Source of the DNA: Escherichia coli
GTDB lineage: Bacteria > Pseudomonadota > Gammaproteobacteria > Enterobacterales > Enterobacteriaceae
Assembly: GCF_017348835.2 (NCBI RefSeq)
Contig: NZ_CP071375.1
Direction: 5' to 3' (one strand)
Length of the DNA: 64,000 bases
Notes under the pieces: model-generated
What the model was told of the DNA's origin: nothing
What the model saw: the letters and a program-made list of their open reading frames with translations, nothing else
Databases searched by the model: none
Position numbers and translations under genes: made by a program
In this document: in pieces, positions 43,779 to 46,818 of the stretch
Layout of the letters: each line of letters starts with the position of its first letter
Numbering within the stretch: position 1 is the stretch's first letter

Positions 43779-44750
43779 GTGGCACAGGAATATACTGTTG
43801 AACAACTAAACCACGGCCGTAAAGTCTATGACTTTATGCGCTGGGACTACTGGGCTTTCGGCATCTCTGGTCTGCTGTTAATCGCCGCTATCGTTATTAT
43901 GGGCGTGCGCGGCTTTAACTGGGGGCTGGATTTTACCGGTGGTACGGTTATTGAAATTACGCTCGAAAAACCGGCTGAAATTGACGTAATGCGTGATGCA
44001 TTGCAAAAAGCCGGTTTTGAAGAGCCGATGCTGCAAAACTTTGGTAGCAGCCACGACATCATGGTCCGTATGCCGCCTGCTGACGGCGAAACCGGCGGTC
44101 AGGTGCTGGGCAGCCAGGTTCTGAAGGTGATTAACGAATCCACCAATCAGAATGCGGCAGTGAAGCGTATTGAGTTCGTCGGTCCGAGCGTGGGGGCAGA
44201 CCTTGCGCAAACCGGTGCGATGGCGTTGATGGCGGCGCTGCTGTCTATCCTCGTGTACGTAGGTTTCCGCTTTGAGTGGCGACTGGCGGCAGGGGTGGTT
44301 ATTGCGCTGGCGCACGACGTTATCATTACGCTGGGTATTTTGTCGTTATTCCATATCGAGATTGACCTGACCATTGTGGCATCGTTGATGTCGGTTATCG
44401 GTTACTCGCTTAACGACAGTATCGTGGTATCGGACCGTATTCGTGAAAACTTCCGCAAGATCCGTCGCGGTACGCCTTACGAAATCTTTAACGTGTCCTT
44501 GACCCAGACGCTGCACCGTACCTTGATCACATCCGGTACTACCTTGATGGTTATCCTGATGCTGTATCTCTTCGGTGGTCCGGTACTGGAAGGCTTCTCG
44601 CTGACCATGCTTATCGGTGTTTCCATCGGCACTGCATCTTCCATCTACGTAGCATCTGCGTTGGCTCTGAAACTGGGTATGAAGCGCGAACACATGTTGC
44701 AGCAGAAAGTGGAAAAAGAAGGGGCGGATCAGCCGTCAATTCTGCCGTAA
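43779..44750 (+). CDS. secF: Protein translocase subunit SecF
   Basis: GTG start at (M)[18 protein letters not shown] (323 aa). Confidence 0.93.
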
Positions 44751-44773
44751 TGGTGTTTTAAATCCGTTCTGTT

Positions 44774-44810
44774 AAAAAAACCGTGGCGTATTTGCGCTGC
44801 GGTTTTTTTT
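44774..44810 (+). terminator. Rho-independent terminator after secF
   Basis: A-run, hairpin AACCGTGGCG...GCGCTGCGGTT, then T8. Confidence 0.7.
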
Positions 44811-44870
44811 GCCTGTTTCACAGGCAACTGAATACGGTTTGGTTGTAGAAAGCGTTCTGACATATACTTT

Positions 44871-44887
44871 GTATTAATAGTTAATAC
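44871..44887 (+). promoter_or_regulatory. Perfect palindrome (candidate antitoxin operator) in the parD promoter region
   Basis: GTATTAA-TAG-TTAATAC about 14 bp upstream of the parD start, next to the SD GGAG. Confidence 0.5.
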
Positions 44888-44900
44888 CTGGAGATCGCTT

Positions 44901-45131
44901 ATGCGCAAAATTACCTCAGTAAGCGTTGGCGAACAATTAGATAGTTTTATTACCCGGATGGTCCAGTCTGGTCGTTATGGCTCGGCCAGTGAAGTAATGC
45001 GTTCGGCACTTCGTCTATTGGAACAACAGGAATCCAGGGATGAAGCTGTCAGAAATGCTGTTATTGAAGGTCTTGAGAGCGGTGAAAGTTCGATGACGCT
45101 TCGTGATATCGCAGCAGAAAGGAAGCAATGA
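44901..45131 (+). CDS. parD: ParD-like RHH antitoxin (COG3609-type), C-terminus replaced by an IS629 end (last 4 codons lost, stop supplied by the IS terminus)
   Basis: SVSVGEQLDSFITRMVQSGRYGSASEVMRSALRLLEQQE...GLESGES matches the ParD/CopG-like antitoxin pattern; stop TGA at 45129-45131 is the first 3 nt of the IS inverted repeat. Confidence 0.8.
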   Translation: MRKITSVSVGEQLDSFITRMVQSGRYGSASEVMRSALRLLEQQESRDEAVRNAVIEGLESGESSMTLRDIAAERKQ

Positions 45132-45155
45132 ACCGCCCCGGGTTTCCTGGAGAGT
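45129..45155. repeat. IS629 copy A terminal inverted repeat (right end)
   Basis: TGAACCGCCCCGGGTTTCCTGGAGAGT. Confidence 0.85.
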
Positions 45156-45170
45156 GTTTTATCTGTGAAC

Positions 45171-46058
45171 TCAGGCTGCCAGATCATTATTTCCGATGGA
45201 AGCATAATAAGCTTTTTCTGCTTCTGCCGGAGGAATATGGCCCAGCCTTTCCAGCAATCGTCGATTGTTATACCAGTCCACCCACGTGAGTGTGGCCAGT
45301 TCCACTTCTGTCCGGTTTTTCCAGCTCTTACGGTGTATTACCTCCGCTTTGTAAAGACCATTGATGCTCTCAGCCATCGCGTTGTCATACGAGTCGCCAG
45401 TACTCCCTGTTGATGCCAGTAATCCGGCTTCCTTAAGCCGCTGCGTGTAGGCCAGCGATACATACTGAGAACCTTTATCACTGTGATGGATTGTGCCGGA
45501 CGGCCGACGGGCCCACAACGCCTGCTCCAGTGCATCCAGCACGAATGTTGTTTCCATGGATGATGAGACCTGCCATCCCACGATGTATCCGGCGAACACA
45601 TCAATGATGAACGCCACATAAACGAAGCCCTGCCATGTGCTTACCCAGGTAAAATCAGCCACCCACAACTGGTCTGGACGTTCTGCCACGAACTGACGGT
45701 TTACGCGGTCGCATGCGGCAACGGCTTTCCGGCTGACGGTAGTGCGGACCTTTTTACCCCGGAGAACACCGGCAAGTCCCATAACTGCCATGAGACGTGC
45801 CACAGTGCATCTGGCCACTCTGATACCTTCCCGTAACAACTGACGCCAGACTTTACGCACACCGTATACCTGGTGATTTTCATCGTATACGCGCTGTATC
45901 TCTTTCTTCAGCCAGTCATCGTGCTGCGCACGGGCACTGCGTTTATCCGGATGATGTCGCTGTTGCTGACAATGGTAATACGTTGACGGGGCAATATGCA
46001 GTTCGCTGCATACCGGTCCGCCCCCGTACTGCTCACGCAGCTTATCCAGCAGTGGCAT
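45171..46058 (-). CDS. IS629 transposase OrfB (DDE catalytic domain)
   Basis: 295 aa in -1 frame relative to orfA; integrase-core DDE region (ADFTWV...HHSDKGSQY...DNAMAES). Confidence 0.9.
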   Translation of the reverse strand: MPLLDKLREQYGGGPVCSELHIAPSTYYHCQQQRHHPDKRSARAQHDDWLKKEIQRVYDENHQVYGVRKVWRQLLREGIRVARCTVARLMAVMGLAGVLRGKKVRTTVSRKAVAACDRVNRQFVAERPDQLWVADFTWVSTWQGFVYVAFIIDVFAGYIVGWQVSSSMETTFVLDALEQALWARRPSGTIHHSDKGSQYVSLAYTQRLKEAGLLASTGSTGDSYDNAMAESINGLYKAEVIHRKSWKNRTEVELATLTWVDWYNNRRLLERLGHIPPAEAEKAYYASIGNNDLAA

Positions 46059-46384
46059 TATTTTTTCCAGAGGCGGTCGAACTCCGCCTTCGCAAAATAA
46101 GCGGAAGCCTGGCGAAGGATATCGTTACTGCGGCGCAGTTCACGATTTTCACGTTCCAGCTCTTTCAGACGCTGACGTTCAGCGGTGGTGAGTCCACCAT
46201 CACCACTCCCGGTATCCCGCTCATGCTGGCGAACCCAGACACGCAGAGTCTCCGGCGTACAGCCAATCTTTGGGGCAATGGAACAAATTGCCGTCCACTG
46301 TGAGTCATATTCATCCTGACTTTCCAGAACCATACGAATCGCCCGCTGACGGACTTCGGGGGAAAAACGAGTATTTTTAGTCAT
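46058..46384 (-). CDS. IS629 transposase OrfA (HTH)
   Basis: 108 aa [23 protein letters not shown]...; IS3-family OrfA with leucine-zipper-like C-terminus. Confidence 0.9.
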
Positions 46385-46411
46385 CCTGTTTACCTCTTTC
46401 TCAGGGAGTTT

Positions 46412-46438
46412 AGTCTCCAGGATTTCCGGGGCGGTTCA
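46412..46438. repeat. IS629 copy A terminal inverted repeat (left end)
   Basis: Reverse complement reads TGAACCGCCCCGGAAATCCTGGAGACT. Confidence 0.85.
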
Positions 46439-46449
46439 GCAAAAACATC

Positions 46450-46731
46450 GTGTATAAGCTTAGCGGAAAAGCTGTTGAAGATTTCAGAGGGATCTATGAC
46501 TACACGCTGGGAAAGTTTGGTGAGGAGCAGGCGGATCGCTATACCGACTCTCTCGGCACTTTTCTGGATACACTCTCTCAAATGCCCGAGATAGGGCAAG
46601 ACTATGATGCGATTCCAGAGGTAAAGAAGATCGCATTTAGGTTTCACACTGTTTATTACGTTATAAGAGTCGATGACATTCTCATTGCGCGCATTCTTCA
46701 TCAGTTGATGGAACCTCGCCGTCACTGGTAA
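46450..46731 (+). CDS. parE: ParE-like toxin (RelE/ParE superfamily), intact but separated from parD by IS629
   Basis: GTG start; YKLSGKAVEDFRGIYDYT...FHTVYYVIRVDDILIARILHQLMEP matches conserved ParE N- and C-terminal motifs. Confidence 0.8.
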   Translation: MYKLSGKAVEDFRGIYDYTLGKFGEEQADRYTDSLGTFLDTLSQMPEIGQDYDAIPEVKKIAFRFHTVYYVIRVDDILIARILHQLMEPRRHW

Positions 46732-46818
46732 TGTGAGAATTTCTTGACTCAGGATTGCGAAAATCCCCGCATCTTGGGAAACTGCGCGTAACCCTACATT
46801 TCATCCAGGTAACTTTTC

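Follow-up and report, generated by a model that had tools for sequence, protein, structure and literature searches.

A putative ParD-binding operator at the promoter of an IS-interrupted parDE module in Escherichia coli

The palindrome GTATTAA-TAG-TTAATAC at positions 44871-44887 is, with high probability, the operator of the parDE promoter, at which ParD would bind for autorepression. We favor this reading because a like site stands in front of parD in dozens of genera while the flanking DNA is unrelated. A preliminary description had put the palindrome forward as a candidate autoregulatory operator of ParD, and this proposal gains support from the identity of ParD as an RHH protein, the presence of the site in 64 of 80 ParD loci, its position relative to the -10 element, and a symmetric change in its arms that accompanies a change in the ParD β-strand. 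These features, all read from sequences, point to ParD as the protein that recognizes the site.

Operator autorepression is how type II toxin-antitoxin modules set the ratio of antitoxin to toxin. The element described here is an ordinary regulatory element of a well-known kind and leaves the view of toxin-antitoxin regulation unchanged. What the comparison provides is a testable operator consensus for a large ParD subfamily, together with a switch of specificity that occurs in nature (K3/I4 paired with GTAT, R3/T4 with GTGT). The operator also offers a contrast with the only well-studied relative, that of Vibrio cholerae. No description of the E. coli parDE control region or of its operator sequences was found in the searchable literature, which covers few subscription journals. 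A 2025 review of E. coli toxin-antitoxin systems lists ParDE only as plasmid-borne, and where a V. cholerae preprint mentions O157, the system meant is PaaA2-ParE2 and not this one.

The parDE islet and its palindrome

The gene order in the window (the whole 64,000-nucleotide stretch of E. coli DNA that was analyzed) is secD, secF, parD, a minus-strand insertion sequence, parE, yajD, and tsx. The secF stop codon is at 44748-44750. Between secF and yajD lies an accessory parDE islet (44752-46752, plus strand), made up of 687 bp, a 1310-bp insertion sequence, and the 4-bp duplication of the latter. The islet junctions, read against MC4100 (L093) and NZRM4165 (L001), indicate that it stands in place of the 62-bp secF-yajD spacer of K-12-type strains, their secF terminator included. 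Of 5426 complete E. coli genomes, 412-426 (~8%) have the islet, many of these being O157:H7; 5422 match only as far as the secF stop. The terminator-like hairpin downstream of secF in the window, AAAAAAACCGTGGCG-TATTTG-CGCTGCGGTTTTTTTT (44774-44810, plus strand), has 15-nt arms that are 87% complementary, is followed by a T-run, and is part of the islet.

The parD gene (44901-45131, plus strand) encodes an RHH antitoxin of 76 amino acids that matches PF03693 over profile positions 1-64 of 81 (79.7 bits, E 2e-22); the match to RHH_1 is weak. Its closest solved relative is V. cholerae ParD2 (7B22/7R5A), with E 3e-19 over residues 1-69. This ParD keeps a complete N-terminal DNA-binding domain, but its PF03693 match falls short of full length, and its last four residues are missing owing to the insertion sequence. 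Intact ParD has 80 amino acids, and its gene overlaps parE by 8 bp (NZRM4165, CUVET17, IAI39, GF4-3, and 86-24). The ParD of the window lacks the C-terminal KHRV, and the end of the insertion sequence provides its TGA stop. The parE toxin gene (46450-46731, plus strand) has an intact frame of 93 codons with a GTG start and matches PF05016 (55.5 bits). The order of an antitoxin with an RHH domain followed by a toxin is that of a toxin-antitoxin module, as identified from PF03693 in ParD, homology to VcParD2 and CcParD1, and PF05016 in ParE.

The insertion sequence (45129-46438, minus strand) belongs to the IS3 family, with orfA and orfB matching Pfam HTH_Tnp_1 and rve, and its ends were placed by comparison of the junctions with intact alleles. 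It entered four codons ahead of the parD stop and is flanked by a 4-bp target duplication, GCAA, at 45125-45128 and 46439-46442. Its terminal sequence presumably resembles IS629/IS1203. The junction between it and parD occurs in only one of the 5426 complete E. coli genomes, that of the pig strain PE164; this genome matches the window exactly, and the element is annotated in it as an IS3 family transposase with a programmed frameshift. About 32 places in PE164 match the end of the insertion sequence. As a consequence of the insertion, a distance of 1.3 kb now separates parE from the parD promoter, and the Shine-Dalgarno sequence that parE had in the 3' end of parD is gone. An RHH-encoding parD does lie downstream of the palindrome, as had been described, but the operon itself is no longer whole: parD is four codons short through the insertion, and parE stands outside it.

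The palindrome, GTATTAATAGTTAATAC, was confirmed in the sequence and by an inverted-repeat scan. It has perfect 7-nt arms at 44871-44877 and 44881-44887 separated by a 3-nt spacer, exactly as first described, and its two 7-bp half-sites, to which no strand is assigned, are 10 bp apart from center to center. Its position immediately upstream of the ribosome-binding and start signals of parD was likewise stated correctly: 2 nt separate it from the Shine-Dalgarno sequence GGAG (44890-44893, plus strand, read from the sequence) and 13 nt from the ATG at 44901. The statement that it lies just after the secF terminator was loosely worded, for the palindrome is downstream of the hairpin but 60 nt away from it.

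Within the window and by itself, the palindrome is statistically unremarkable. Perfect inverted repeats with 7-nt arms and a 3-nt spacer occur five times in the 64 kb. Perfect 7-bp repeats with spacers of 0-6 nt occur 48 times (~0.075 per 100 bp), and those with spacers of 0-10 nt 81 times; about 0.08-0.13 such repeats are therefore expected by chance per 100-bp promoter region. The exact palindrome pattern with up to two mismatches is found once in the window against 0.18 expected, and 16 of 100 shuffles also reach one. That the palindrome is more than a chance repeat follows from the comparison across species, not from these window statistics.

In most alleles and species, the dyad extends by one more pair, T...A (44870-44888), the A matching 44888 being present in 54 of 57 homologous contexts. 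Base 44888 is A in IAI39, GF4-3, and CUVET17, G in O157-type strains, and C in the window. Among five aligned E. coli alleles it is the sole variable base from the -10 element to the start codon; promoter and palindrome, -10 included, are invariant. The base at 44888 might tune repression.

A second perfect inverted repeat of 8 bp, TTGCCTGT-TTC-ACAGGCAA (44809-44827), lies 44 nt upstream of the palindrome, directly after the T-run of the terminator. It was considered as a further operator and dropped, since a G-to-T change breaks it in CUVET17 and the segment 44808-44828 is replaced in IAI39. This repeat appears to be unconstrained, and the replacement in IAI39 serves as an internal control for the absence of constraint beside an invariant palindrome.

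Conservation of the site in homologous ParD loci

Three E. coli alleles are 97% alike, too similar to test constraint, and other species were used instead. An alignment of ParD homologues, used as the query against species-representative genomes, brought up 80 loci with 47-84% identity. The pattern GTRT-N9-AYAC is present in 64 of the 80 zones of 70 nt upstream of parD, once per zone where found, and its place is always downstream of a -10-like hexamer and upstream of the Shine-Dalgarno sequence. Elsewhere it occurs nine times in 239,774 nt, which amounts to 0.002 expected per zone. An anchor-free search for the best palindrome of the 70-nt zone centered it on the motif in 55 of the 68 loci whose ParD is not of the AKNT type (the V. 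cholerae type described below). With upstream regions anchored on the start codon, nearly every non-Vibrio-type locus shows a palindrome at this same location.

The 17-mer has a mean pairwise identity of 0.78 among 56 distinct contexts, or of 0.70 if only the 11 positions left free by the pattern are counted; the values are 0.26-0.35 for 17-nt blocks upstream and 0.63 for a block of coding sequence. The consensus across the homologues is TGT(A/G)T(T/G)AA-N3-TT(A/C)A(T/C)ACA. Its conserved core consists of two half-sites, (T)GTRTKA and TMAYAC(A), with centers 10-11 bp apart, roughly the spacing of a helical turn. The perfect 7-bp arms reported earlier do occur in the window, but what is conserved is a pair of half-sites and not a 7-bp stem.

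The hosts of the site include Enterobacterales, Vibrio, Shewanella, Acinetobacter, Halomonas, Rheinheimera, and others, and the genomic contexts are unrelated. parE is detectable in 62 of the 80 loci, at an offset of +235 in nearly all of them. Six loci (L010, L025, L036, L041, L055, and L066) have kept parD and the palindrome; in these, tblastn (E 1e-3) found no ParE homologue within ~1.7 kb downstream of the parD start. Partial ParE matches alone were seen in L047, L065, and possibly L005. The loci that lack a ParE match may carry orphan autoregulated antitoxins or a swapped toxin.

Three loci are unusual in other respects. The modules of L005 (on the megaplasmid p1 of a Pseudomonas sp.) and L043 (in a Bacteroidetes-labelled MAG) are nearly identical to Enterobacterales or gammaproteobacterial ones, which suggests horizontal transfer or mis-binning. 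In Photorhabdus asymbiotica (L031, ~1443-1497), the operator is the center of a perfect palindrome of ~55 bp, TACCTCTATGCTATACTTTGTGTGAAT-A-ATTCACACAAAGTATAGCATAGAGGTA. The arms of this palindrome contain a -10-like TATACT and an SD-like GAGG, and the whole control region is mirrored.

Arms of the putative operator and the ParD β-strand

The ParD proteins fall into three classes by the sequence of their N-terminal ribbon, and the arms of the site differ among them. The ribbon MRKITS/TVS (RKIT) is found in E. coli, Salmonella, Yokenella, Xenorhabdus, Pantoea/Erwinia/Enterobacter, and Photorhabdus, in six unrelated genomic contexts, and is always accompanied by a perfect GTATTAA-N3-TTAATAC. The ribbon M(A/P/G/S)RTTS(V/I)T (xRTT) occurs in many genera and is accompanied by GTGT...ACAC in 47 loci, mixed arms in 3, and degenerate arms in 3. 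The V. cholerae-type ribbon MAKNTSIT (AKNT) goes with the footprinted ATACCATAATTAGGTAC-N5-GGTAT and never with the 17-mer. That arrangement is limited to the AKNT-type loci L068-L079 and L083, and GTRT-N9-AYAC was found in none of the 13 AKNT-type loci.

Both arms vary together with the DNA-reading β-strand, being GTATTAA/TTAATAC with RKIT proteins and GTGTTAA/TTAACAC with xRTT proteins. Positions 3 and 15 are A and T in 12 of 12 RKIT sites, as well as in Salmonella, Xenorhabdus, and Yokenella, and G and C in 47 xRTT sites. The Cedecea site (L015), GTGTTAATAGTTAACAC, differs from that of E. coli only at a symmetric pair, by A-to-G and T-to-C. The site is in this sense both conserved with and specific to its cognate antitoxin, being present in 64 of 80 loci with a base pair 3/15 that tracks the β-strand class. 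Exceptions are xRTT proteins with GTAT or mixed arms (L022/L023, L055/L056/L060, and L065) and an R3 protein with GTAT in L080. The latter locus, from Providencia alcalifaciens (~1440-1495), encodes the ribbon MARVTSVT and has a site, GTATGACTGAGTAATAC, next to a V. cholerae-like palindrome, TACCAT-TCG-ATGGTA. This locus may stand midway in the evolution of one operator type into another.

The RKIT proteins form one clade nested within the xRTT proteins in a neighbor-joining tree. Repeated independent co-variation of arms and ribbon was considered and dropped because of this monophyly, which implies that the arm swap and the ribbon change were a single evolutionary event that was thereafter maintained.

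Lys3 proteins (RKIT and AKNT) accompany GTA boxes, and Arg3 proteins accompany GTG. Arginine generally prefers guanine, and the pairing of Lys3 with GTA and Arg3 with GTG fits this preference. We infer that ribbon residue 3 probably reads base pair 3/15, lysine with A·T (GTA) and arginine with G·C (GTG). If true, such a rule would insulate co-resident parDE modules from one another and could be re-engineered.

The same observations bear on whether the site serves another protein, either a host global regulator or only a complex that contains ParE, and not ParD itself. This we regard as very unlikely: the site travels with parD across unrelated contexts and hosts, switches with the ParD β-strand, and is kept in the six loci in which parE is not detectable. 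The precedent for it comes from V. cholerae, where DNase I footprinting showed protection by the 6:2 ParD2:ParE2 complex alone and none by free ParD2, although the ParE of that system has no DNA-binding activity (PMC10776004).

Promoter geometry, proposed repression, and related operators

The best pair of promoter hexamers upstream of the palindrome consists of a candidate -35 element, TTGGTT (44839-44844, plus strand; three of six consensus matches), and a candidate -10 element, TATACT (44863-44868, plus strand; five of six), separated by an 18-bp spacer. The -10 element ends 2 nt (TT) before the palindrome. A scan of 44600-45200 for σ70 promoter and terminator consensus sequences reported no promoter over threshold and did not call the secF hairpin either; the hexamers were subsequently scored by relaxed matching across the homologues. 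Transcription is predicted to start around 44874-44877, inside the left arm and ~7 nt after the -10 element, and relative to the predicted promoter, TTGGTT-18-TATACT, the palindrome would extend from about -4 to +13. The overlap with the parD promoter that had been claimed for it holds for the predicted transcription start; the palindrome lies between the -10 element and the Shine-Dalgarno sequence and not on the hexamers.

A like geometry is found in the homologous loci. All 65 strict-site loci have a -10-like hexamer (A2, T6) that ends 0-5 nt before the palindrome, or 6 nt in a single locus, and a G-rich block occupies the place of the Shine-Dalgarno sequence. A good -35 element often accompanies the hexamer, as in Shimwellia, Serratia, and Pectobacterium, which have the near-consensus arrangement TTGACA-17-TATCAT-T-GTGTT. 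By eye, the TTGGnn-N17/18 arrangement is also seen in Photorhabdus (TTGGTA-18-TATACT), Salmonella (TTGGCA), and Xenorhabdus (TTGGGG), whose DNA is otherwise unrelated. The sequence ATAC at 44864-44867 was considered as a third box of the V. cholerae kind and dropped, since in class-1 homologues it is conserved merely as part of the -10 element.

A position downstream of the -10 element raises the possibility that the arms do not work as a DNA site but fold into a stem-loop near the start of the parD transcript that affects its stability or translation. The arms are complementary and lie on the transcribed side of the -10 element, a 21-nt fold has z = -3.9 against shuffles, and pairs 1-4 and 6 stay complementary across homologues. 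The fold is worth just -2.6 kcal/mol, however, longer contexts fold no better than shuffles, and a search of Rfam gave nothing with E up to 1. All seven pairs are kept in only 15 of 57 distinct contexts, inner substitutions that abolish pairing being found in the other 42; of 28 distinct sites, 10 have T·C or G·A at pair 5-13 and 10 have A·A or T·T at pair 7-11, changes that would disrupt a stem. The outer four bases are invariant in sequence and do not co-vary freely. In addition, the predicted transcription start inside the left arm means that the full stem would not be transcribed. The element does not have the features of a structured 5'-UTR RNA, and a role as an RNA stem is very unlikely.

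Equally improbable as an RNA stem is a core promoter element (an alternative -10, an extended -10, or a discriminator) conserved for RNA polymerase. The left arm does contain TATTAA, and TTGAGC-16-TATTAA can be drawn in the Pantoea/Erwinia group, but in the xRTT class the corresponding sequence is GTGTTAA or GTGTGAA, which is not -10-like, and a separate -10 element is always present just upstream. Neither dyad symmetry nor a conserved right arm beside the Shine-Dalgarno sequence plays a part in σ70 recognition. The least probable reading of all, a functionless chance palindrome in AT-rich intergenic DNA, can point to the ~0.75-1.3 perfect 7-bp repeats per kb of the window and to the unconstrained repeat 44 nt upstream, but not account for the recurrence of the site at one position in 64 of 80 loci whose flanks are unrelated, where 0.002 per zone would be the background, or for an identity of 0.70-0.78 against 0.26-0.35 in the flanks.

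If the palindrome is the ParD operator, each half-site would take up one of two ParD dimers, and the N-terminal β-ribbons of these dimers would enter adjacent major grooves on the same side of the helix. With the predicted promoter covered from about -4 to +13, open-complex formation or promoter escape would be blocked, and ParD would thereby repress the operon to which it belongs. ParE probably modulates this repression in intact alleles, as it does in V. cholerae. The stoichiometry of the repressor and the role of ParE are extrapolated here from the V. cholerae system, in which the architecture of the operator is different. In the strain of the window, the operator would govern just the truncated parD, since the insertion sequence removed four C-terminal residues and detached parE. 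A more tentative proposal, which may well prove wrong, is that ParD proteins of the RKIT and xRTT classes use a minimal operator of two half-sites, and hence a tetramer or dimer-of-dimers repressor, unlike in mechanism the three-box 6:2 "ruler" of V. cholerae ParDE2, with the Lys/Arg rule at residue 3. Equally tentative is the separate idea that in this strain the insertion left ParD as an autoregulated repressor that stands alone, parE being either silent or expressed from the insertion sequence.

The V. cholerae ParD2:ParE2 complex protects -21 to +13 of its own promoter through GGTA and GTA[C/T] boxes, its β-sheets lying in consecutive major grooves (PMC10776004). That operator and the E. 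coli site are alike in having a homologous antitoxin, a location between the -10 element and the Shine-Dalgarno sequence that spans the transcription start, GTA boxes read by the N-terminal ribbon, and autorepression, the last three being predictions for E. coli. They differ in that the V. cholerae operator has a 33-bp footprint, three GGTA or GTA[C/T] boxes, and a 6:2 complex with three ParD dimers, whereas the E. coli site has two half-sites in one dyad of 17-19 bp; the β-strand is AKNT in VcParD2 and RKIT in E. coli ParD. The predicted span of the E. coli site, -4 to +13, corresponds to the lower half of the V. cholerae footprint. No third conserved box of the V. cholerae type was found, the flanking columns of the matrix showing only the -10 element and the Shine-Dalgarno sequence.

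For Arc, Mnt, and CopG, a pair of RHH dimers occupies neighboring half-sites that lie about a helical turn from each other, with β-ribbons in the major groove and asymmetric base contacts in each half-site. The binding proposed for two ParD dimers repeats the Arc/CopG pattern and would suit the 7-3-7 operator of CopA_SO as well. Arc, Mnt, and CopG are phage or plasmid repressors and not antitoxins, have no toxin co-regulator, and recognize other sequences. The RK2 parDE system is the founding one, and its RHH ParD autorepresses; this ParD presumably belongs to a sequence family other than PF03693. The Shewanella oneidensis antitoxin CopA_SO, described as a CopG-like RHH protein, binds with nM affinity to a 17-bp 7-3-7 site, GTATTAC-CTA-GTAGTAC, in the promoter of its toxin-antitoxin module, and the inverted repeats are required (PMC8706911). 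It shares with the E. coli site the 17-bp 7-3-7 layout, the GTA...TAC ends, and an RHH antitoxin. The CopA_SO 7-mers are each palindromic (GTANTAC), whereas those of the E. coli site are mirror halves of one dyad (GTATTAA and TTAATAC).
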